Source: a virus (Duplodnaviria; Caudoviricetes). From it: a DNA stretch of 64,000 nt. Location: positions 32,001-96,000 of IMG/VR virus record IMGVR_UViG_2728369482_000003; one strand, written 5' to 3'. The translations under genes were made by a program, and so were the position numbers. Of the stretch, positions 1 through 34,000 are shown one piece after another. Every line of letters begins with the position of its first letter. Position 1 is the stretch's first letter. The notes beneath the pieces are model-generated. The model was not told where the DNA came from. It ran no database searches and worked only from the letters and a program-made list of their open reading frames with translations.

Positions 1-2
1 AA

Positions 3-386
3 CGGCAGAAGCTCGAAGCATCGGTGGCCCACCTACGGAGCCAGAAAGTAGCCGATAGTGAGATTCGTTCCCAGCTGGGAGCTATCTACACCCCGAAGTG
101 GAAAATGCCCGATACGGGAGAAGTACTTTCCGAATTCGATTACCAGCTGCTGCAGATCCGAAACGATCCCCAGAAAAGTCTGGAATTGGCCCGCTTCGTT
201 TTGAACCGGGACAAGTTCGTCAAGGAACTCACCACCCAGGCGACCAACCAGGTCGTCGAGCAGAACTACCAGAAACTCAAGTTCAAGCCGAAACCCACGG
301 CAACAACCCCCGCTCCCGGCCAATCGGGACCGGGCCGTCCCCGGACCGATACACCGGAGAATCTCTATAAACCCTTCCTTTCTTAA
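3..386 (+). CDS. 3' end of the gene upstream of the MCP (probable scaffold-like structural protein), truncated by the window edge
   Basis: Frame is open from base 3 to TAA at 386, 3 nt before the MCP start; Pro-rich C-terminal tail. Confidence 0.6.
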   Translation, partial: RQKLEASVAHLRSQKVADSEIRSQLGAIYTPKWKMPDTGEVLSEFDYQLLQIRNDPQKSLELARFVLNRDKFVKELTTQATNQVVEQNYQKLKFKPKPTATTPAPGQSGPGRPRTDTPENLYKPFLS

Positions 387-3748: not shown

Positions 3749-5677
3749 ATGAACGAAGGAAAACTTTACAACGGCCAGCGAATCTCGATGGTCACAAACA
3801 ACACCAAGTTGTTCGCCGGGACTGGTCCTGAAGACCTGGCAACCGAGCAGATTGGTGTGTTTCAGCAGGACGGTAAGACCCGCTTCAAAGGGACCCGTAC
3901 ACCGGTCAAAAACAAAGGCCGCAAGTTTAAAATCATGCAGGGTTTCCCGAATCGGTATTCGGCCCTGACGTCCCGGGCTCAGCTGCCCTCCTTCCCCCAC
4001 CAGACGGTCGAATTCAAGGCCGAACAGATCGTGGGCTGGAACGGGATTGCCGCCAAACCCTTTACCAAAGAGCCGATGGTAGCCGTGGGTTACGACGGTT
4101 CGGATGCGGCCAAAACCCTTTCGGTTAAAAAAGGAGAATCGGTTCAGTTCCATTTGCACCTGACGGGATCACCCATCCATAAGCTGACCAACCAGCGGGG
4201 CTGGCTCCACCAGGAATTCAACATCGAACCCGACTGTCTGGGCGATGCCGAACCCGGTACCCAACAGGCCTGCGCGAAAATCCAGAAGGCCTTCCTCGAC
4301 CAGTTCGAACGGAAAACCTTTGGTACCATTCCGCTCAAAACTCTGGTCAAAGCCACGGGTGTTTCGACCTGTGATACCCCGCCGTCGGGTCTGGTTCAGT
4401 TCAGTGAATACAGCATCGACGTTACCGATACGGGCTCGGAAGCGGCCCTGGGCCGGGTTCAGGCCCAGTACCCCGGTAAAGTCGTTACCCGGAAAAGCTA
4501 CGCCGACCAGATCTCGACTTACCTAGTTCAGACGCCTTCGGGAGCCGGTAACGCCCCGGCTCAGCTATCGGTAAGCAAGAACCCCGTGTTGCCCAACTGT
4601 TCGACCTGTCCGAGTGGCTACACACTGGTGGCTCAGGGTTCGGTCTTTGAGGTTACGGTACCCAACGACACGACTCCGGCCGACCAGCCCGGTCAGATCA
4701 GCAAAACCAAAATTGGCGGACAGCCCGAAGAAGCCGTCTTCCAGTACGTTATGCCGGCCGCCCAGGATCCGGCCCAGTTCGAGACCAACATCAAAGCCGG
4801 TACGGGTACCGCTTCGGCCGAAGTGAAGTTTCAGGGACTCCAGCGGGGTCTGTGTACGCCCCCGGCGGCCCAGACATTATCCTGGACGGCAACCGGTAAA
4901 ACCTTCTCGAAGGCTCCCGCCGACTACACGATTACCCTGCAGGATACGACCTGCGGTACGTCCCGGCTGGTCGAATTGCAGGCCCGCTACGGTTCGGGGG
5001 TATCCGAAGACGTGGATGGTCAGTGTACCCGCCGGTATAAACTGACGACTTACTCGGATGCAGTTTTCGACGACAGCTGCGGGCTGGAACGCTACAAGTT
5101 CGTGGCCCCCGATGCCTACGACAGCATTCCCTGGGTACCGGTAGTGCTGACGGGTTCGGGTACAACGGGTTGCTCGTGCGGTATTATCCTGGAAGGAGCC
5201 CGGTTTATCCGGCCGGTAAACGAGGTAACGTTCCCGCTGATCGGCTACGACCGGCGTGATCTGGAACCCGTTCAGATCCGGGTATCGGCGTTCTCCCACG
5301 ATTATACGGGGCCGGTCTGTCAGACAACGTCGGTTCCCTTCACGATCCTGCAGAACTCGGATTATCCGGTTGGTTTTGGCCGGGACGTCATTGAGACCGA
5401 ACGGGACAGCCTGGGTTATTTTCTGAAGGAGTACACCTATCACCCGATCGTTCGGGAACTCTACGGGGATCGGTTCATTGCCAAGCCGGAGCTGTACTAC
5501 GACGAGTACCAGCTGACGGTAAACACGAAGTCGAACAACATGGGCTTCTTCGGGGAAACGGGCTTTAAGATTATGTACCGGTTTTTCTTCCCGGTCGGGC
5601 AGGGTAAGGAGTTCGAAGCAGCCATCAACTCGCTGGTGGCTTCGGTAGACTCTGACCTGTCCCTGGTAACCCTCTAA
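3749..5677 (+). CDS. Cys-rich structural (auxiliary capsid/decoration) protein
   Basis: 642 aa, beta-rich with Cys pairs (CSTCPSGY, GCSCGI); strong codon bias; followed by a terminator. Confidence 0.65.
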   Translation: MNEGKLYNGQRISMVTNNTKLFAGTGPEDLATEQIGVFQQDGKTRFKGTRTPVKNKGRKFKIMQGFPNRYSALTSRAQLPSFPHQTVEFKAEQIVGWNGIAAKPFTKEPMVAVGYDGSDAAKTLSVKKGESVQFHLHLTGSPIHKLTNQRGWLHQEFNIEPDCLGDAEPGTQQACAKIQKAFLDQFERKTFGTIPLKTLVKATGVSTCDTPPSGLVQFSEYSIDVTDTGSEAALGRVQAQYPGKVVTRKSYADQISTYLVQTPSGAGNAPAQLSVSKNPVLPNCSTCPSGYTLVAQGSVFEVTVPNDTTPADQPGQISKTKIGGQPEEAVFQYVMPAAQDPAQFETNIKAGTGTASAEVKFQGLQRGLCTPPAAQTLSWTATGKTFSKAPADYTITLQDTTCGTSRLVELQARYGSGVSEDVDGQCTRRYKLTTYSDAVFDDSCGLERYKFVAPDAYDSIPWVPVVLTGSGTTGCSCGIILEGARFIRPVNEVTFPLIGYDRRDLEPVQIRVSAFSHDYTGPVCQTTSVPFTILQNSDYPVGFGRDVIETERDSLGYFLKEYTYHPIVRELYGDRFIAKPELYYDEYQLTVNTKSNNMGFFGETGFKIMYRFFFPVGQGKEFEAAINSLVASVDSDLSLVTL

Positions 5678-6504: not shown

Positions 6505-8196
6505 GTGGCCTGTCAGCCTGCTAATCCCTGCCAAAAACCAACCTGTACCCGCTGCCAGGGAACAGGTTCAACCACTCCGGGTTCGGGGACGGGTCTGATT
6601 ATCGATTCAAGCCAGGTTATCTACCACCTGACCCCCGGCCAGACCAGTAAGCTGATTTGCCTGGCGCTGGCCAACGGGGTTAGTCTGGAGACGATTCTGG
6701 AACGGATCGATCAGGCCCTGTGCGCCCGTAGTCTGCCCGAACCGGCCAAGCTAAATCTGGCCTGCTTTCTGCAGAACAAACCGGCTCCGGCTACGATGGG
6801 GGGGTTGCTGGAAGCTATTGGCCAGGCTATCTGTAACCTGCGGACGGCCACCGACATCGGTAATCTGATTCAGCAACTGCTGGCCAGTTCGGTATTTGTC
6901 TCGGGGCTGGCCACACTGATTGCCACCAACCCCAGCTTTATTTCCACGCTGCTGGCCAACCAGAGTTTTCTCTCTCAACTGGCCGCCAGTGAGTACTTCG
7001 TTTCCCAGCTGGCCAACAATCCCAGCTTTATTACCCAGGTCGGTACCAAGCTGGTAAATGATTCCCACTTTGTCTCCAGCCTGGTGCAGAAGATCACCAC
7101 GGATCCAACCCTGAAAGAGCAGTTCTGCTGCGATACGGGGGGCTCGTCCCCCTGCCAGACAATGATCGTCGGCGGAGTTCCCCAGGTTATCTGTTCCTGC
7201 CAGGCTCCGACGAGTCTGCTGCTGACGGGGCCGGCTACGGGTTCCCCAGACACCGATCTGACCTACCAGCTGAGCTACGCCGGAACGCCGGGCCACGTCA
7301 GCTGGAGCATTGCCGGGGGTCAGATTCAGTCCCAGACGGATACAGCGGCCACCGTTCGCTTCAGCCAGTCAGGTAGTCTGACGGCCACGGTGACGGGCTG
7401 CGACGGGAATAACTACCCCGTCAGCAAACAAACCAGTATCGGCCCGGCCTGCATACCGGTAAGCGGCCTGACCATCACCGGTCAGATCAAGCCGATTCCG
7501 GGTACCAGCGTTACCTACCAGCGGGCCGTAACGGCCGGTACGGTACTCAGCCACAGCTGGACCATCTCGGGTGGTATCATTACCGGTTCGGCTTCGGGCG
7601 AATCGGTGACGGTTACCTGGACGGGCAACGGTATTCCGGGCGTACTCAGCCTGTCGGTCAATGACTGTTCGGGCTCGGCCAAAACCACCCAGCTCTCGGT
7701 TGCTCCCCAGCAATTGACCACCGAGCAGATCGGGGAGCTGAGTGCCAGCTGCCGGATCAGTGGGTCCTGTAACGATAACGGACTTTGCAGCGTTCGTCAC
7801 CTGGTCAGCTTCAGCGGCTTACAGCCGAATCTGGGCTACAGTGCCGAACTGGAAACAGCGTCGGCCAGCGGAGCCAGTCTGACCGTACTGGATTTCAACC
7901 AGTCATCTACTACGGCCGTTGGCCAACTGGTGTATACCCAGCTTAGCGGTACGGGCAGCTACAGCGGGGCCCTTGTGCTTAAACAGGGCGGTCAGACCAT
8001 CGGCAGCAAGCTACTGACCCTAACTAACTCCAGCAGCTTTGCCGCCCTGCCATCGTGTCAGAGTCCGGCTACCGTACAACCCACCAACTCGGCCGGTCAG
8101 TACACCGTCAGCTTTGACGATACCGGTCTGACGCCCCCCTACACCTATACTCTCAAAGACCAGGCCGGTACGACCCAGGCCAGCGGCAGTTTATGA
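6505..8196 (+). CDS. Cys-rich fibre/decoration protein with helical repeats and PKD/Ig-like domains
   Basis: 563 aa; Cys-rich N-terminus, about 9-aa LxxNxxFxS repeats, two PKD-like units (WSIAGGQI, WTISGGII). Confidence 0.65.
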   Translation: MACQPANPCQKPTCTRCQGTGSTTPGSGTGLIIDSSQVIYHLTPGQTSKLICLALANGVSLETILERIDQALCARSLPEPAKLNLACFLQNKPAPATMGGLLEAIGQAICNLRTATDIGNLIQQLLASSVFVSGLATLIATNPSFISTLLANQSFLSQLAASEYFVSQLANNPSFITQVGTKLVNDSHFVSSLVQKITTDPTLKEQFCCDTGGSSPCQTMIVGGVPQVICSCQAPTSLLLTGPATGSPDTDLTYQLSYAGTPGHVSWSIAGGQIQSQTDTAATVRFSQSGSLTATVTGCDGNNYPVSKQTSIGPACIPVSGLTITGQIKPIPGTSVTYQRAVTAGTVLSHSWTISGGIITGSASGESVTVTWTGNGIPGVLSLSVNDCSGSAKTTQLSVAPQQLTTEQIGELSASCRISGSCNDNGLCSVRHLVSFSGLQPNLGYSAELETASASGASLTVLDFNQSSTTAVGQLVYTQLSGTGSYSGALVLKQGGQTIGSKLLTLTNSSSFAALPSCQSPATVQPTNSAGQYTVSFDDTGLTPPYTYTLKDQAGTTQASGSL

Positions 8197-10868
8197 GCTA
8201 CGTCCGAAACATTCAGCTCCCCTCGACATTAGCGAGTGGGAGCTTTCAGCTGAGCATTCAGGATGCCGCCGGGGTTACCCTGCCGCCCCAGTCGCTGAGC
8301 TACAGCCGTCCCAGTTACCCTTCGGGTATGAGTCTGCGGGTTACCTACCAGGCGGCTACCAAACGGCTGTACATCAACCAGGCCGGGGACAACATCCAAA
8401 TTCGGATTCTGCGGCAGGACGGGGCCGTATTTGTCATGGCTAACCCGGATAATCCGAATCTGTCGTCCGGGGTTTTCTACGGAGCCGGTCCCCTGTCAGG
8501 GCAGGGAATATATACCCGGCAGTGGGATTTCCGGCAGAAAGCCGATGGGTCGGGCGGAATTCCCCAGTTACCGATCCAGATTACGGGGAAGCTCGATAAC
8601 GGCGTTACTTTCGATTTTTTCTGGACCCCCACGGAAGTAACGAATCTGGTCCTGTTCGAACCCAGTTCAACGACGCCGGTCGATCCGTCGGTAAAGGCTT
8701 ACAACAAGGTACTCTTCTGGGACAACTCGATCGGTTTCCACCCAGCGGTTCCCGGTATCGGCTGGCCCTACAACTGGGGGATGGCGGCTACCGAAGCCAG
8801 CAAGGATTACCGCCACCGGTTAATCGACAAGCTCCGGCTGAGTAACCCGGCCCTGCAGGCTTATGCCCTGGGAGGTGAAAACAATGCCAACGGCATCAAC
8901 GGCCTGACCAGTGGCGTAACCGTAGCATCGGTACCCGACTGGGAAGCCAATTACGATACCCGTAGTCTGGACAGTTACGCGGATGCCTATAACGTAGGAG
9001 CCGATCTGCTGATATTTGCCATCGGGGAAAACGTGGATGACGACGGGGTTACGGGCCGGGGCTTTAAGCAAAAAGTCCTCGATCTGTTTGCCCGCTTCAA
9101 AGCCGTCAACCCGACTATTCAGATCGTGATTCGAACGCCGGTCTGGAACAAACCGACCGTAACGGGAAATCTGATCCAGATTGCCCAGGAACAGGGTATT
9201 CCGTTCTGGACGGGTTCGGCCCTGATTGGTGATCCGGCCAACTTTGGCTTCGATAAGCCGGCCGGACAGACGACCGAACCGACCGATGGGGTCAAAGCCC
9301 ACCCCAACAACACGGGGATGGCAAAAATTGCCGAAGGGGTTTATGCAGCTATTCCGGTTAAAAACTCGACGATTCCACCCTCGGCCGGTAACGCTACCCG
9401 AATCAGCGGGGGTTTCTACGAGTCTCCTTCGCTGGCGGATATGTTCAGTCGGGCTCCGTTCGTTCCCGATCAGAACCAGCTTTCCGACTGGCCCAATGCT
9501 ACGGCTAAAATTCTGGAAAACGACCAGATCGTACTGGGGATTCATAAATCGATTGGCGGTTCGATTACCATCATCAAGGATAAACGGGACGGAATCAACC
9601 TGGTCAATACCTACGCGATCGGTCAGCCCAGCAATCCTGATGCCTGGGATACGGGACGATCGGGTGACTACTCGATCTACGGAACGCCGATCGGGTCAGG
9701 AGATTCCTACTACGAAGCCGGACAAAACACCAACCAGACCGGGGACGATACGGGCTACAACGGGGTTCCCGGTGGTTCCCGCTACCTGGACCGCTCAACG
9801 ATTACCTTTTACCAGCGGAAAAACGTGGAAGGACTGGGTCTGGTCGATTACGTCCGAACGACACCCAAACAATGGAGCATCCAGAACATCGATACCCAGT
9901 ACGTTCGTCACGCCTGGTACTATCTGCTGGGCAGCAGCTACTGCTGGACCTATCTGATCGAGTGTAACCGAACTGATTCCCAGCGTACGTTCGAAGGTCG
10001 AGAACAGGAAGGTCCGTTTATTTATACCATCGGTAACAACTACCAGTACCTGGTCGAGCTGGGAACCGATGGTACGACTACCCAGATTCAGAAAAGTGAT
10101 TTCCCGGGCGGTCAGAACGATACGGGGATCTACTATACGACGGGTAACTACATCGGTTCCTACAACCCGACGTCGGGCCGGGGGCTTACGCTGTTCGCTC
10201 CTCACTGCTCCCGGGTCCGGGGTAAACAGTTTATCGGTCAGGCGGGTGACGAGTACTCCAACTCCAGTGGTTACATCGATATTGCTGACTTTAAAGATGC
10301 CGACAGTATCGGTAAATGGATGGTTCAGGGCTTTACCCACGTGGGTAGCAATGCCGAGTTCAAGACCTGGCGGGCGGCTCAGATGATTCCGACGCTGCCC
10401 CTGAAATGGAATTTCTCGGGAGGAGACTTCCAGGGCTGGGCCAGTCTGTCGGGTAAGTTCCAGAAGATCGGGGGCGTGAGTACGCTGTTCATGGGGGAAC
10501 CCCGTAAGCAGGACGGATCCCGGGGTGAGACCGTATTCGTTTCTCCGTCGGGCAGCTGGCAGGTAGACAGCCTGCAGACGTTGTATCTCAACGCGGCCAT
10601 CAAAGGCTTGTCCCGGCTCTATATCAGCTGGCTTAAACCCGGTCAGACCGAGATCCAGGCGGCTCAGGCCGGTCAGTACAAGGAATTCGACGTCAGCGCC
10701 ACCGACAGCTTTCAGACCTATACCTTCTCGATGGCGGGTAGTCCCTGGAACGGGATCATCTCCCGCTTTCAGTTCGGTATTCCCGGTGCCAACCGGAGTG
10801 GTCTCAACGGCTCGGAATACCTCAAACCCGGCTGGATCAATACCGTCAACCAGGCTCCCCAGTTCTAA
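8193..10868 (+). CDS. Multidomain SGNH/GDSL esterase with carbohydrate-enzyme-like C-terminal domains (putative receptor-binding protein/depolymerase)
   Basis: 891 aa; FWDNSI (block I variant), WGMAAT, IGEN (block III) and HPN (block V); beta-rich C-terminal half. Confidence 0.7.
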   Translation: MSYVRNIQLPSTLASGSFQLSIQDAAGVTLPPQSLSYSRPSYPSGMSLRVTYQAATKRLYINQAGDNIQIRILRQDGAVFVMANPDNPNLSSGVFYGAGPLSGQGIYTRQWDFRQKADGSGGIPQLPIQITGKLDNGVTFDFFWTPTEVTNLVLFEPSSTTPVDPSVKAYNKVLFWDNSIGFHPAVPGIGWPYNWGMAATEASKDYRHRLIDKLRLSNPALQAYALGGENNANGINGLTSGVTVASVPDWEANYDTRSLDSYADAYNVGADLLIFAIGENVDDDGVTGRGFKQKVLDLFARFKAVNPTIQIVIRTPVWNKPTVTGNLIQIAQEQGIPFWTGSALIGDPANFGFDKPAGQTTEPTDGVKAHPNNTGMAKIAEGVYAAIPVKNSTIPPSAGNATRISGGFYESPSLADMFSRAPFVPDQNQLSDWPNATAKILENDQIVLGIHKSIGGSITIIKDKRDGINLVNTYAIGQPSNPDAWDTGRSGDYSIYGTPIGSGDSYYEAGQNTNQTGDDTGYNGVPGGSRYLDRSTITFYQRKNVEGLGLVDYVRTTPKQWSIQNIDTQYVRHAWYYLLGSSYCWTYLIECNRTDSQRTFEGREQEGPFIYTIGNNYQYLVELGTDGTTTQIQKSDFPGGQNDTGIYYTTGNYIGSYNPTSGRGLTLFAPHCSRVRGKQFIGQAGDEYSNSSGYIDIADFKDADSIGKWMVQGFTHVGSNAEFKTWRAAQMIPTLPLKWNFSGGDFQGWASLSGKFQKIGGVSTLFMGEPRKQDGSRGETVFVSPSGSWQVDSLQTLYLNAAIKGLSRLYISWLKPGQTEIQAAQAGQYKEFDVSATDSFQTYTFSMAGSPWNGIISRFQFGIPGANRSGLNGSEYLKPGWINTVNQAPQF

Positions 10869-10879
10869 ACCTCTCTTTT

Positions 10880-11086
10880 ATGGCCTGTTCATCCTGCCAG
10901 GACCCACCCGTTGCCGGCTGCGTGGATACCCTGCCCGCCGACTGTCTCCAGTTCCCCGACGGAACCAAAGCCGGCGGGCTGCTTTACCAGCTTAAACCGC
11001 TGGTCAGTAACAACCAGCTCGATCTGATTACCTACCTGAAGGCTAACCCGGCCGTTGTGGCCCAGCTCAAACTTCTGCTCAGCTAA
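10880..11086 (+). CDS. Small Cys-rich protein resembling the N-terminus of 6505..8196
   Basis: 68 aa, MACSSC start; TAATG coupling to the next gene. Confidence 0.6.
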   Translation: MACSSCQDPPVAGCVDTLPADCLQFPDGTKAGGLLYQLKPLVSNNQLDLITYLKANPAVVAQLKLLLS

Positions 11087-11685
11087 TGGCGGCAACAACC
11101 TTATCCATTTCGGGGGGAACGCCCCCTTTTAAAGTTACCATCACCGAAGCCGCTTCGGGTAACCAGATTCCCTGTAGCTCGGGCTGCGGCAGTAGCAACG
11201 ACCGAAGCCGGAACATCGTTTTTTCGGCCCTGACGGGGACTTACAACTACCGGATGCGGATCGAGGATTCGTCCTCACCCGTCTGCGTTTCCGAGCAGCT
11301 GACCGGTGCGTTGACCTGTCAGTCCGGATCGACCGTCAGTTTTACGGCCAACGTAATCCAGCCCACCTGTTCGGGGTCTACCCTAAGCTCGTCGGCTACC
11401 GTTCAGCTGAGTAACATTGCCAACGGAAACCGCTACCACATCTACCAGAACAACAGCATTTCGGGTAACGACTGCGGGGGAGCCATTTCCTTTACCGGTT
11501 CTTCGGTAAGTATTCCCGTCAATGCTCCGGCCCAGGGACAGTCCCAGCCCTACGCCATCCGAATCTGGGGTGGTTCGGACTGTTCCAGTTACGCCGATGC
11601 CATCGTTACCGTCAATTCACCGACCTGCCAGCCTGGTTCCAGCTGTAACCTGACTATTTCGCTGGGAACCCCGACCTGCTCCTGA
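11086..11685 (+). CDS. Cys-rich SprB/Ig-like fibre module protein
   Basis: 199 aa; ISGGTPPF (SprB-like) plus one PTC-type module. Confidence 0.6.
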   Translation: MAATTLSISGGTPPFKVTITEAASGNQIPCSSGCGSSNDRSRNIVFSALTGTYNYRMRIEDSSSPVCVSEQLTGALTCQSGSTVSFTANVIQPTCSGSTLSSSATVQLSNIANGNRYHIYQNNSISGNDCGGAISFTGSSVSIPVNAPAQGQSQPYAIRIWGGSDCSSYADAIVTVNSPTCQPGSSCNLTISLGTPTCS

Positions 11686-11686
11686 T

Positions 11687-13177
11687 ATGGGTAAAATCCC
11701 GTTGAGTATCCAGAACGCACCCGGACCGGCTACGATCTCGGTCAAGCTGGCCGGCGATGCCACCGAAAGGTATACCGGCTATACCGACGGGTACTGCTAT
11801 TTCAATGCTCCCCAGGACGCCCAGACCCACACCTATACCCTTCAGGTCAACGCGGGTTCCTGTCAGACGGCCCAGACTTTTTCGCTCTATTGCGGAGCTC
11901 CTCAGACCTGTTCCCCACCCAATAACGTGTACCGGTTTGCCGTTCCACCGGGCGAGGTTCGTTACAATACGGCCGATGAAGCCTGTCAGGGAGTCTGTAG
12001 CGGAACGACCGGGAACGAAGGCGGGCATCCGGTCGATTACCTGGGAGTGGGTGGTAAAATCTTCGATAACTTCGTCAACTGTACCGCCTGGAATAATACC
12101 GGCTGGTTTCCCGTTCACCAGAACCCGGGGGATCCGTTTACCCAGATCGTTCAGGTTCAGAACGGGATTATTCAGGCCCTGCAAAGCTGCCCGTGCGGAA
12201 ACAACGATACCCAGCCCAGCTTTACATTGTCCGCCCGCAACCCGACCTGTGACGGCTCGATTTCGAGCGGCTTACTGCTAACAGGTATTCAACGGGTGGA
12301 TCGGTACCGGTACACGAGTGGTACCAGCTACACGGGTCCCATCGACTGCCAGCAGGGTACTCCGCTAACGTCGGCCAACGGCTCGTTTCTGATCGACATT
12401 CCGGCCCCGGCTCCGGGCAACTCAAACACCTATACGGTACGGGGCTGGAATACGGCCAACTGCGGTCAGTGGTGGGATCAGACGGTTACCGTTACGGCTC
12501 CGGTCTGTCAGACGGGACCGGCTCCGATGACCGTGACGGCTTTTCAGCCAAGCTGCCAGAACGGGCAAATTACGGGGGGCGGCTTTTCGATTCGGAACGG
12601 GGATAGATCGGGAAAATTCCGGTACTGTTACGGTAGCAGCTTTGGTTGTACCAGTGACTGCTCGGCTCCCGACGGGTATCTGCAGAACGGTTCTGTCGAT
12701 TACGGTTTATCTTTCAATAGCCGCTCATCGGGCTACAATCAGGACGTAACCATCCGGGTTTACAAGGGAGACTGTTCGTCGTTTACCGATACGACCCTGA
12801 CCTTTTCGGTACCGGCCTGTAACGTCCCCTGTACGCCTTCGGAAGCCAATGTATCCGAGCGGTATGACGGTAAAGCGGAGATTAAAAACTATAGCTATCA
12901 GAATACCAACTGCGTCGATCAGACGGTTTACGTAGCCTTCAACCCCTTTAGTATACCCGACAAGATCAGTTTGTTTATCGACGGCCGTCAGGTATTTACC
13001 TCGGGCTGTCTGGGGGATGACGTGCGAACCGGTAAAACGGTCCTGCTCCACCACGGGGAAACGCTCCGGGTCGAAGTAGACGGAACCTGTTCGGGTAATT
13101 CTGGTACGCTCTGGCAGCTGGTGATGTCGAGTAAACAGGGGGTATTCGGACAGGAGTATACGCCCGTCAACCGGTAA
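11687..13177 (+). CDS. Cys-rich fibre/adhesin-like protein
   Basis: 496 aa; two PTC/PSC modules and a C-terminal domain with SIPDKI and GTLWQ. Confidence 0.6.
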   Translation: MGKIPLSIQNAPGPATISVKLAGDATERYTGYTDGYCYFNAPQDAQTHTYTLQVNAGSCQTAQTFSLYCGAPQTCSPPNNVYRFAVPPGEVRYNTADEACQGVCSGTTGNEGGHPVDYLGVGGKIFDNFVNCTAWNNTGWFPVHQNPGDPFTQIVQVQNGIIQALQSCPCGNNDTQPSFTLSARNPTCDGSISSGLLLTGIQRVDRYRYTSGTSYTGPIDCQQGTPLTSANGSFLIDIPAPAPGNSNTYTVRGWNTANCGQWWDQTVTVTAPVCQTGPAPMTVTAFQPSCQNGQITGGGFSIRNGDRSGKFRYCYGSSFGCTSDCSAPDGYLQNGSVDYGLSFNSRSSGYNQDVTIRVYKGDCSSFTDTTLTFSVPACNVPCTPSEANVSERYDGKAEIKNYSYQNTNCVDQTVYVAFNPFSIPDKISLFIDGRQVFTSGCLGDDVRTGKTVLLHHGETLRVEVDGTCSGNSGTLWQLVMSSKQGVFGQEYTPVNR

Positions 13178-31032: not shown

Positions 31033-34000
31033 TGAATCCCCAGGCCCCAACACCACCTAACCCTGTATTTGATCCGAACAGGGTTCCATTCGAAGGAGCC
31101 GGTGAGCCAAAACCCCTGCCCCTGTCTCCCCTGGAGATTGCCAGCAGCATTTCGGCTCCGCTGATTAAGGAAGCCGCCCGGAAACCCAGTCCGGCGGATA
31201 CCCTGCTGAAGCTGGGTCAGTCGGAAATGCTCACCGGCCGGGAAGCCCAGGAAGCCAGCCGGTACACCGACGGAGGTAACACCTACCTGCGGGGCCGGGA
31301 TAACGAAGCCGTGGCTGCCGCCGGGCAGGGGTTCTGGAGCCGGACCTGGAACGATACCAAAGCTCTGGTGGGTATTACCGGCTCCTCGATCCTGCAGGCT
31401 CCCCTAGCCATCCCCCAGCTGGTTAAAGCCGGGGTGAGTCTTTTGCAGGGAGAAGGAATCGACAAAGCCCTGGACTACGCTCGGGGTGAAGAAGGTTCCT
31501 GGATGCGGGGTCTATCGGACTGGCAGGATCAGCTGAACCAGGATACGACTAACTACAGCTCCAGCTGGGCCCGGGAGAATCCCTGGAAGAATTTAATTCC
31601 CGGTTACGGCGGAGAAGGCGGTACGGACTTTGGTAGCTTGGTTCGCTCGGGTGGGTTTGTGCTGTCAGGCATTGCTACCAGTCTGGCCGAGGGAGCCCTG
31701 GGGGCGGCTTTAGCTCCGGTAACCGGCGGAATTTCTCTGGCTGCCGTTGGTGTCGATCTGACGGGTAAACTCGTCCGGGGTTTCAAGGCTTTATCAACCA
31801 TCGGAAAAAGTCTGGATAAGCTGGATGATGCGCTACGGCTCAAACGGGAAGCCGAAGGAGTTCTCCACGGGGTAGACACCATTCAGGGGTTGGGTAAGCT
31901 CTGGAGTGGAATTGATACGCCACTGGGTAATCTCTCCACCCGATCGGCCCTGCACGGTTTCTTGCTGGCTAATTCCGAAGCCAGTCTGGAAGGCTACGGA
32001 GCCGAGAAGGAACTGGAGCGGACCCTGCTGGATCAATACTACCAGCAGACGGGGCAGGAAGCCACGGGAGAAGCCCGGAGCCGGATTCAGTCGGTGGCTC
32101 AGCAGGCCGGTAACAGTACCTACCTGTGGAATCACGCCTTACTGGGAGTGAGCAACAAGTTTCAGATCGATTCGATCCTGAAAAACTTCTCGGCCACCAA
32201 ACAATTGTTTTCCGGACTGGAAGGTGATCTGTACCGGGCCGAACGAAAGACAGGTACCAATGTATTCGAAGCCGTTCGGCAAGGTAGTAAACCACTGATC
32301 AGTTCGGCTCCCGAAGGAGCCAGCTGGTTCAGCCGGGGTTTAGGAGCCGGTAAAGCCGTGGGTACCCAGGGCCTGCTGAGTCTGTCCGAAGGTCTGGAAG
32401 AAAGCCTGCAGAAAGCCGTTACCGACGGAACCCAGAGCTACTACCAGTACAAATACAACCACGGTGGTAAAGCTGATTTGCAGAACGGACTCGATGCGGC
32501 CACCCATGGGCTGTCGGAAGCTTTCGGGACCAGCTCAGGCTGGACCGAGTTCATCGGCGGAATGCTGATTGGTTCTCTCTTTGGTGGGGGCAGTAAGGCC
32601 CTCTTCGACTGGCGGTCGGCTCCCGGCCAGCAGAAACGGGCCGAAGCCCTGGCCCAACAGTTCAACCTGTCGATGCCGGACTTTCAGCGGGTTATTCAGC
32701 AGCAGCTGACGGGTAGTCTGGCCGGAGCCGATCTGTTGACCAAAGGAGCCGAGACCAACGCGGTGTTGGGAGCCAGTTCCGTGGGAGCCCAGGCGGCCAG
32801 CCAGGGCCAGCAGCGGATTTTTCAGAACCAGAAAAACTCGGCCGAGTTTTCGTTTCTGTATCCCTTCGTCCGGCAGGGAGCTGATTCGGTACTGAAAGAA
32901 CAACTGGATTCCTTTAAACAGGACATCGAAAAACGGCCCGACGAATTCCGGCAGGCCTACGGTATTGACGGCTCGGTACCAACCGATAAACTCCGGGGAA
33001 TCATCGATCACCTGGGTACCAAACTGGAAAGCCTTCAGCGGGCCCATGATCGTTACGCTCCGCTGTTTATCAACCCGTATAAGAAGGACCCCTCGTCGGA
33101 AGACTACCGTGACTTTGAAGCCTACCGGGCCGAGCTGCTCCACAACGATTACCTCCGGCAGAGCTACGGGGAGCGGATAGCCAAGCTTCAGGGTAAAACC
33201 AGCCTGCTGGGGGAAACCGACTGGACGTCCCCTGCTGGCTGGAAAGCCCGGAAGGGACAAATCAGTAACCGGCTGACCGAGCTGGACAGCTTGATCAGTC
33301 TGGCCAAGCAAAGCCTGGCTCCTACTGGTGACCGAACCAACCCGACGGATGAGGAAGTAGCCCGGGTGGACCGGCAGCTTCGTTCTCAGCAACGGGCTGA
33401 ACGGGAAGAGCTGGAAGCCCGGCTGTCGGCCATCGAGCAGATTCAAACGGGTAACTTTACCGACTATGACGCCGTACTGGATACGATCAAGGCCGAGCTG
33501 ACCCATCCGGACATGGGTACGGGTCTACCGAAAACGATCACCCATACCGAACTGGCCCAGCTGCTACAGGACCGCTACGACGTCGGGGAGCTTCAGGCTT
33601 CGATCGATAAGCTGACCGAGTTATTCAACGGATTGAGCAGCCGGAAGGGCTTCGAGGATTACCGGGTAACTACGGATCGGTACCGGGCTAAACAGGTTCA
33701 AAAGGAACTGGAAAAACTCCTGTCCAGCCGGACGGCCCTGCGGGATGAAATCGTGGGTCAGTTCGATTCAGTAGCCGATGCCGAATTGCACCTGGGTTCC
33801 CTGGATGAGCTGACGGCCCGCTACGGATCCGACTACAACCAGAATCCGGACTCGGTTCGTACGGAGCTGGGGCAACTGATTACCGAAAAGAAAGCCGAAA
33901 AAGCGGACGAAAAAGCCCGGCGGGATGACGAGATCCGGATTCTATCCGAACTGGTTAAAGGGGATCCCCGGGTGGCTGCCGTTCAGAGCCGGGCCGATCA

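Follow-up and report, generated by a model that had tools for sequence, protein, structure and literature searches.

Are the fibre proteins of a phage made of domains that are cut in two by gene boundaries, or of complete domains that are linked end to end? The question is raised by a 64,000-nucleotide stretch of the IMG/VR virus record IMGVR_UViG_2728369482_000003 (positions 32,001 to 96,000, hereafter the window), which carries a crAss-like prophage of Spirosoma whose fibre genes are five plus-strand open reading frames (ORFs), g563, g891, g68, g199 and g496, located 3' of the capsid gene. An initial annotation, made from the sequence, had proposed that one SprB-like module is rebuilt from two neighbouring proteins at the g563|g891 junction and another one at the g199|g496 junction, either because the subunits donate beta-strands to each other or because they are joined by frameshifting. 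The ORFs, their termini and the overlaps at 8193-8196 and 11683-11689 are all exactly as it described them; a third tight junction, the TAATG overlap of g68 and g199, was absent from it. Our reading, to which we give a probability of about 0.6, is that the prophage encodes two virion fibres, each made of several separately translated proteins, that in the second fibre a C-terminal tail most likely chains one protein to the N-terminal head module of the next, and that the gene of the first fibre has most likely been split by a change of frame.

The modules of g199

The modules were defined on g199, for which a full HMMER search against 1.84 billion representatives gave 73 hits and an AlphaFold model built from 33 aligned homologues reached a predicted local distance difference test score (pLDDT) of 89.8. 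The protein consists of an SprB-like immunoglobulin (Ig) sandwich, the A-module, followed by a B-module and a short tail (Table 1). The A-module follows the pattern GGTPPY .. Y.V.VTD..GC, and many homologues open exactly with it (MAxIxLxIxGGTPPY). In the model, the B-module is of fibronectin type III (FN3)-like fold, with SFTANVI..PTC (residues 85-95, the 'xFxAxVIQPTC' element) as its strand A. Compared with 7y8i_A by VIA, it gave a Z of 8.1 and a root-mean-square deviation of 2.5 over 78 of 82 residues (model range 81..179), and many further FN3 structures scored between 6.5 and 7.9; a Z of about 8 is a common level, so that the match shows a fold and not homology. Pfam fn3 gave no hit on the B-module.

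The last part of the protein lies outside these domains. Residues 178-199 were modelled as coil, with a pLDDT of 69-73, while both domains are complete. The tail itself (188-198, C-N-L-T-I-S-L-G-T-P-T-C) is amphipathic, with alternating hydrophobic residues, and this pattern is kept in 10 proteins, both cysteines being invariant. The likeness that had been noticed between this tail and the opening strand of a B-module is real, since in fused homologues the tail of g199 aligns with strand A of the following B-module, yet the tail is a distinct, conserved C-x10-C element. We also considered a repeat-phase reading, in which 'strand + PTC' is the last strand of the upstream module and all boundaries fall at domain edges. 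It was rejected for the B-modules, as strand 85-91 belongs to the FN3-like domain in the VIA assignment and the copy at the C-terminus is unstructured.

The boundary between g199 and g496 is conserved and cuts no domain

The view that one module is rebuilt across position 11686 did not survive: residues 1-74 of g496 are a complete A-module, matched by a hidden Markov model (HMM) built without any window sequence (Table 1), and not the rest of a B-module. It had been suggested that complete folding of each protein on its own would speak against shared domains. Indeed g199 forms two complete domains and the head of g496 is full, which refutes a cut domain, yet g199 also leaves a conserved, unstructured tail. 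Repeat phase and module type can make repeats look like a 'domain split across genes' where there is none, and each split-domain junction therefore needs comparative and structural checks.

The same first and last residues are found in stand-alone orthologues of g199 of 28-42% identity, namely P0007 (199 residues), P0030 (190), P0041 (191) and P0021 (300), all of which terminate on the second tail cysteine; the same tail terminus is present in protein 181 of the metagenomic contig L024 and in proteins 175 and 182 of the prophage of Spirosoma terrae KCTC 52035. Five junctions between a tail-ending gene and a gene with an A-module head (tail|A-head) could be read with their DNA context in three phages (the window, S. 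terrae and L024), with spacers of -1 to 13 nucleotides and differing frames. The S. terrae junctions read TAA-T-ATG (175|592), TAA-CCT-ATG in the same frame (182|175) and TAATG (160|744), and the 181|489 junction of L024 has a 13-nucleotide spacer with stops in all frames. When gene ends that encode a tail were seen with their DNA, five of the six stood directly before an A-headed gene, the exception being that of a 524-residue protein of L024, which stands before an anchor gene. Moreover, the whole gene order is repeated in S. terrae and L024: a small anchor, one or two 'A ... tail' proteins and a long A-B-B-tip protein, which correspond to g68, g199 and g496. The syntenic small anchor proteins that precede the A-headed genes have 152 residues in L024 and 150 in S. 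terrae.

The initial annotation had proposed to look for homologues in which the genes are fused, and these exist. Tail and A-module are carried in one chain by P0009, P0075 and P0076 (B-tail-A) and by P0028 (A-tail-A). P0009, P0075 and P0076 (705 residues, 96-kb contig) read ..SPTC-ASG-CTLTFTINTPTC-TT-IPVTVTG.., and P0021 corresponds, in split form, to residues 1-300 of P0009, with 47% identity between the two. The fusions and the conserved boundary link the neighbouring proteins by the Rosetta-stone argument. Altogether, g199|g496 is an old, conserved gene boundary, and both g199|g496 and g68|g199 are inherited boundaries with ordinary translational coupling, neither frameshift sites nor errors: the conserved boundary, the differing frames and the fusions exclude sequencing error, recent decay and programmed frameshifting at these two junctions.

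How the fibre subunits would be joined

In this protein family an A-module always comes after a tail, whether in one chain with it or encoded by the next gene, and the docking of a tail on an A-module is thus the most likely joint. For the second fibre the order would be g68, a small Cys-rich anchor, then g199, then g496 with its A-module, two B-modules and tip domain. Judged from the sequences, the tail of g199 would most likely dock on g496, binding its N-terminal A-module by beta-sheet augmentation, and the tail cysteines would possibly fix the joint. The conserved sequence on either side of the boundary would permit exchange of the distal part by recombination. The idea of a modular, chained fibre with exchangeable distal parts is therefore supported by the tail|A-head boundary in three phages and by the natural fusions; the part of that idea which had the subunits joined by frameshifting fails at g199|g496, where frames and spacers differ among relatives and L024 has stops in all frames.

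Models point to a tail that would be an added edge strand or a docking peptide rather than a missing core strand. AlphaFold folds the A-modules confidently without it, so that it is probably not a required core strand, and the A-module of g199 without any tail superposes on the seven-stranded C-terminal domains of the type IX secretion system (67 of 75 residues, Z about 7), although pilins that have an open groove can be folded by AlphaFold too. In the model of the fused P0009, a short tail strand (291-294) lies just before the first A-strand, with a pLDDT of about 60.

Several observations weigh against the chain. A-modules fold tail-less, both in g199 (residues 1-77) and in the first A-module of P0009, where the preceding tail-like element has a pLDDT below 50, and the fused junction itself is modelled at a pLDDT of about 60 only. 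The first A-head of each chain comes after an anchor protein that has no canonical tail. Finally, both tail cysteines are kept in the fusions, where an internal staple fits as well as an inter-subunit bond. Some of these points would suit an arrangement of independent appendages, in which each A-headed protein would use its A-module to dock on the virion and the C-x10-C tail would be an internally disulfide-stapled cap or the remnant of a linker: the A-modules do not need the tail, AlphaFold places tail-like elements poorly even in cis, and the fusions retain the two cysteines. We nevertheless consider this arrangement unlikely. It fits less well with the A-modules found in the middle of chains in natural fusions (two A-modules in P0009, A-tail-A in P0028), which cannot all be virion docks, and it accounts poorly for a tail that is strongly conserved, amphipathic and outside the domains, as well as for the A-headed gene lying directly after five of the six tail-ending gene ends.

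At the other extreme, the fibres might be true daisy chains. The Cys-bracketed tails would be inserted, as in pili, into the next A-module, with the terminal cysteine as a covalent lock, and the division of an Ig domain between g563 (two strands) and g891 (four strands) would be deliberate, serving to fasten an enzyme-like protein of host origin to the fibre. One feature of a pilus-type donor is present in the models, namely a terminal strand of alternating hydrophobic residues outside the donor's own fold. We hold this version to be unlikely too. If it were true, daisy chains would be a general plug-and-socket system for the swapping of fibre tips in crAss-like phages.

A possible frame change at the junction between g563 and g891

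The first fibre would consist of g563 followed by g891, and here the situation differs from that of g199|g496. From its sequence, g563 clearly ends two strands into an A-module: in a comparison with 22 A-modules, its last 35 residues correspond to their first halves (z 6.6, 0 of 300 shuffles). The peptide obtained by joining the two proteins at 8193 could be aligned across the junction with the A-modules of g199 (z 5.2) and P0007 (z 6.6). Taken alone, the g891 half gave a non-significant z of 1.8, and the support from hmmsearch and hhalign is confined to the first half. A hallmark motif, [YF]x[LIVM]x[LIVM]xD[AS]xG, which was defined post hoc, has a single occurrence in the six frames of the window; it lies at 8244, and GLTPPY precedes it by 40 codons. 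Against the Pfam SprB repeat (PF13573) the joined peptide scored 15.8 bits (E 0.011), covering only GLTPPYTYTLKDQAG, and g199, g496 and the read-through P0002 gave no hit; the gathering threshold of 28 bits was not reached by any tested protein. The claim that a single SprB-like module is rebuilt across 8193 therefore stands for its first half, and leans for the second on a weak alignment and a motif at the right spacing.

No relatives of this junction were found in the viral-contig locus search or in word-indexed protein searches with residues 400-563 of g563 and 1-170 of g891, which returned the queries themselves only, the 'longer' and 'shorter' length ranges not having been searched. The same type of search with g496 also gave only itself. 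The lack of relatives, the thin evidence for the second half of the module and a cut that lies off the usual position of the family all count against a chained joint at 8193.

The boundary would lie in the loop after the second strand of the A-module. The first fibre most likely derives from one continuous gene, made of a tail, an A-module and an acquired enzyme-like part, now broken by a one-nucleotide frame change and with g891 still translatable from the overlapping ATG. Such a simple change in a formerly continuous gene is favoured by a cut away from the usual tail|head position; that stop and start overlap precisely in ATGA speaks for a joint that has evolved. The mechanisms proposed initially are here no likelier than an ordinary frameshift mutation.

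In its plainest form, this explanation holds that a one-nucleotide deletion, by mutation in the resident prophage or by an assembly error, split one gene of 1454 codons, that an ATG is found at the stop by coincidence and that the halves do not reassemble. By our rough odds it comes first among the explanations of this junction, at somewhat short of an even chance. The cut is in the middle of a domain, unlike the conserved tail|head boundaries; the site lies within a TTT run; no relative found in the searches shares the cut; and P0034, a homologue of 76 residues truncated as if by a frameshift, shows that such breaks occur in the data of the A-module family. Two points go the other way: no other large ORF of the prophage is broken, and the precise ATGA overlap is a signature by which this phage itself couples genes and is expected by chance after only about 5-10% of random frameshifts (our own estimate, not a computed value). 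Unbroken ORFs of 3359, 1812, 1512 and 1487 residues indicate that assembly indels are rare in this prophage. Tight junctions are typical of it, 12 of 26 falling within -4 to +4 nucleotides, and five of the 26 are ATGA or GTGA overlaps. An evolved split is possible and comes second, clearly behind the lesion; recoding we judge improbable at this site, and chance or error takes what is left.

P0034 is the closest A-module relative of g199 (51% identity). After ..HNYRVRV it continues with unrelated sequence and then stops, and it looks like a metagenome-assembly frameshift or a fragment.

Programmed frameshifting is very improbable

Programmed ribosomal frameshifting would fuse the neighbours by a -1 shift at T TTA TGA (8190-8196) and by a +1 shift at TCC TGA T (11680-11686). 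UUA to UUU is a workable P-site slip beside a slow stop codon, as with shifty stops and the U UUA AAC site, and this counts in favour of a shift at 8193. An 11-bp GC-rich hairpin, GCUCCCCUCG..CGAGUGGGAGC, lies at 8215-8243 inside the start of g891, and the 94-nucleotide stretch folds with a z of -2.2, 7 of 200 shuffles being as good. However, the heptamer is not of the X XXY YYZ type, since only the P-site codon re-pairs and a stop stands in the A-site, and the hairpin begins 19 nucleotides after the stop instead of the canonical 5-9. From sequence, low-level -1 slippage could occur at T TTA TGA. At the other junction, the region downstream of 11688 has no notable RNA structure (z -0.9), and in relatives the corresponding junctions differ in frame, in the last codon (TGT, GAC) and in the spacer, which reaches 13 nucleotides with stops in every frame. 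Every downstream gene, in addition, has its own ATG. As an explanation of both junctions, programmed frameshifting is very improbable.

A +1 shift of the prfB type at g199|g496 was rejected separately: the sequence is UCC UGA U in the window and UGU UAA U in S. terrae, L024 has its 13-nucleotide spacer and further tail|A-head junctions are in the -1 frame or in the same frame, so that there is no conserved P-site codon, and each downstream gene starts with its own ATG. A reassignment of TGA to tryptophan was likewise dismissed, because the frame beyond either TGA codon contains more stops and no module. The S. terrae genes for the 182- and 175-residue tail-ending proteins (L019:6426-7505(-)) are in the same frame with only TAA CCT between them, and read-through of a single stop would fuse both.

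Comparison with known systems

The nearest structural parallel that we found is in phage Tuc2009, where a C-terminal extension of BppU (about 25 residues, a hairpin) completes the Ig-like, titin-like domain of BppA (PMC4742702). As proposed here, an extension outside a protein's own domains completes the beta-sheet of a partner and so attaches an accessory carbohydrate-binding protein. The differences are that a crystal structure exists for Tuc2009 and the joint is deduced here, that a hairpin and a C-terminal partner domain are used there whereas the prophage has a Cys-bracketed 12-mer, an N-terminal partner domain and a serially repeated joint, and that no sequence relationship to the prophage fibre proteins was found. 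In the Pseudomonas podophage A1002, the nozzle is split, truncated beta domains are filled by a neighbour and fibre dimers dock by an augmented beta-sheet (PMC13730344). These are other proteins and folds (a nozzle beta-propeller, fibre dimers on a rope protein) of an unrelated phage, and here the argument is made by sequence and comparison only.

The fibres of crAss001 are built from several proteins (gp22, gp21, gp29), attached via short N-terminal peptides; one fibre component ends in an Ig-like sandwich, and the hubs are stabilised by disulfides (PMC10172136). The fibre joints were not resolved in that work, and the present prophage is only distantly crAss-like. In the only crassvirus atlas, fibres that consist of several proteins were too flexible to be resolved, and a conserved joint of tail to Ig-like head, whether split or fused, would give a concrete docking rule and mark the boundary for the exchange of receptor-binding tips.

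With chaperone-usher pili, which use donor-strand complementation, and the type V pili of Bacteroidia, which use strand exchange, the proposed fibres share Ig-like subunits joined head to tail by a terminal amphipathic strand of alternating hydrophobic residues. Pilins, however, lack a core strand and cannot fold alone, whereas the acceptor A-module is folded fully by AlphaFold without the tail; the donor is C-terminal here, and no chaperone or usher was seen. Lastly, the SprB repeat (PF13573) and the giant adhesins of Bacteroidota show the same GGTPPY..Y.V.VTD..GC pattern, and both A- and B-modules match bacterial proteins of 2000-5400 residues. The likeness stays below the Pfam cut-off of 28 bits (only the joined 8193 peptide gave a score, of 15.8), and the phage proteins differ in their short length, their anchors and tails and their lack of signal peptides.

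Genomic context of the fibre genes

The major capsid protein, encoded at 3749-5677, has 22% identity to those of Cellulophaga phages phi17:2 and phi4:1 (97% coverage, E 1e-13) and 32% to that of Leptolyngbya phage Lbo-JY46. phi17:2 is named as a marine relative of crAss001 (PMC10172136), and by homology of the capsid protein the prophage appears to be a distant crAss-like phage. In a related-locus search of viral contigs, the alignment of the capsid protein retrieved only the S. terrae KCTC 52035 prophage; the same kind of search with g563, g496 and a g199 alignment gave no related locus, and a blastn comparison of the region with a phage collection gave no match. Searches of Pfam, PHROGs, NCBIfam and PDB sequences assigned no family to any of the five proteins or to the host homologues of g891. 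With the A-module profile, 400 genomes of the host order yielded weak matches in giant bacterial proteins only and no further prophage.

Table 1. Fibre genes of the prophage, their junctions and their modules (window positions)
Feature	Position	Strand	Description
g563	6505-8196	+	GTG start; ends ..ASGSL*; fibre protein 1; Cys-rich anchor N-terminus MACQPANPC.., NPxF(I/V)xxL helical repeats, two PKD-like domains, beta region
g563, start of cut A-module	~8101-8193	+	First two strands, after tail-like CQSPATVQPTN
g563|g891 overlap	8193..8196	+	ATGA stop/start; site T TTA TGA; g891 in -1 frame
g891	8193-10868	+	Starts MSYVRNIQL; ATGA overlap with g563, -1 frame
g891, residues 1-47	8193..8333	+	Putative second half of cut A-module; hallmark FQLSIQDAAG at 8244-8273
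g891, residues 48-891	8334..10868	+	Homologous to signal-peptide-bearing secreted proteins of Spirosoma genomes
g68	10880-11086	+	11-nucleotide gap after g891; small anchor-type protein
g199	11086-11685	+	TAATG overlap with g68; ends ..GTPTCS*
g199 A-module	11086..11316	+	Residues 1-77; SprB-like Ig sandwich; pLDDT 83-96; VIA domain 1..77; A-module HMM 35 bits
g199 B-module	11320..11628	+	Residues 79-181; seven-stranded, FN3-like in the model; strands 85-91 to 168-177, pLDDT ~90
g199 tail	11638..11682	+	Residues 185-199; C188-x10-C198; outside both domains; coil, pLDDT 69-73
g199|g496 junction	11683..11689	+	TGA-T-ATG; g496 in +1 frame; orthologous S. terrae junction of same geometry, TAA-T-ATG
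g496	11687-13177	+	Starts MGKIPLSIQN; TGA-T-ATG after g199, +1 frame
g496 A-module	11687..11908	+	Residues 1-74, complete; 68 bits, E 3e-23, profile positions 1-76/78
g496 remainder	11909..13177	+	Cys-rich insert, two B-modules (~170-290, 281-380; E 1.7e-11 and 4e-3 against g199 B-module), C-terminal tip domain

The body of g891 has homologues of up to 47% identity in Spirosoma (L005, L006, L009), which carry signal peptides; the figure of 47% was obtained for residues 401-889 against G028. Residues 48-891 and these host homologues had no match in Pfam, NCBIfam or PDB; motifs in g891 look SGNH-like to the eye, but we do not assign it to that family. The S. terrae prophage has a counterpart (L019:8837-13579(-), 1580 residues) that retains its signal peptide. 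Homology to secreted Spirosoma proteins makes the distal part of g891 look acquired from the host lineage, and by its sequence g891 looks like a case of gene flow from host to phage in which the signal peptide was replaced by a fibre module.

The anchor of g563 is homologous to S. terrae t160 (E 1e-12) and its PKD region to S. terrae t744, and the Cys-rich anchor is common to fibre proteins of S. terrae, L024 and Lbo-JY46. The first member of the second fibre, g68, begins with MACSSCQDPP.. and has one NPAVVAQL repeat. BLASTP gave no significant match between g68 and g563, whose putative kinship is drawn from shared motifs only: both open with M-A-C-x-x-x-x-x-P-x-x-x-x-C (6505-6560 in g563, 10880-10945 in g68), and their relatives open with denser Cys clusters (MCNCNEPQ.., MCGCPELDCNC..). 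By analogy with residues 1-26 of crAss001 gp22, such N-termini may plug into the virion hub as knots held by metal or disulfides.

A group of metagenomic anchor-type fibre proteins (P0014, P0020, P0029, P0032, P0035, P0038, P0042, P0044, P0046 and L023:504-2561) ends with ..NPC-xx-CC-x-L-x-I-x-x-V-x-L-T-N-[IV]*. These ends match strands A and B of a B-module and stop just before its RYK motif, and they may be a second kind of conserved cut, inside an FN3-like module. In L023 the next protein does not continue the B-module. In the cyanobacterial phage Lbo-JY46 (L046, 12917-17844), the anchor domain (..L.CLG...G..L..ILEKID..LC) is found on a 669-residue 'tail fiber protein', on a protein of 814 residues and as a stand-alone protein of 156 residues. 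The presence there of both the anchor and a small anchor-only protein means that the two are shared well beyond Bacteroidota hosts.

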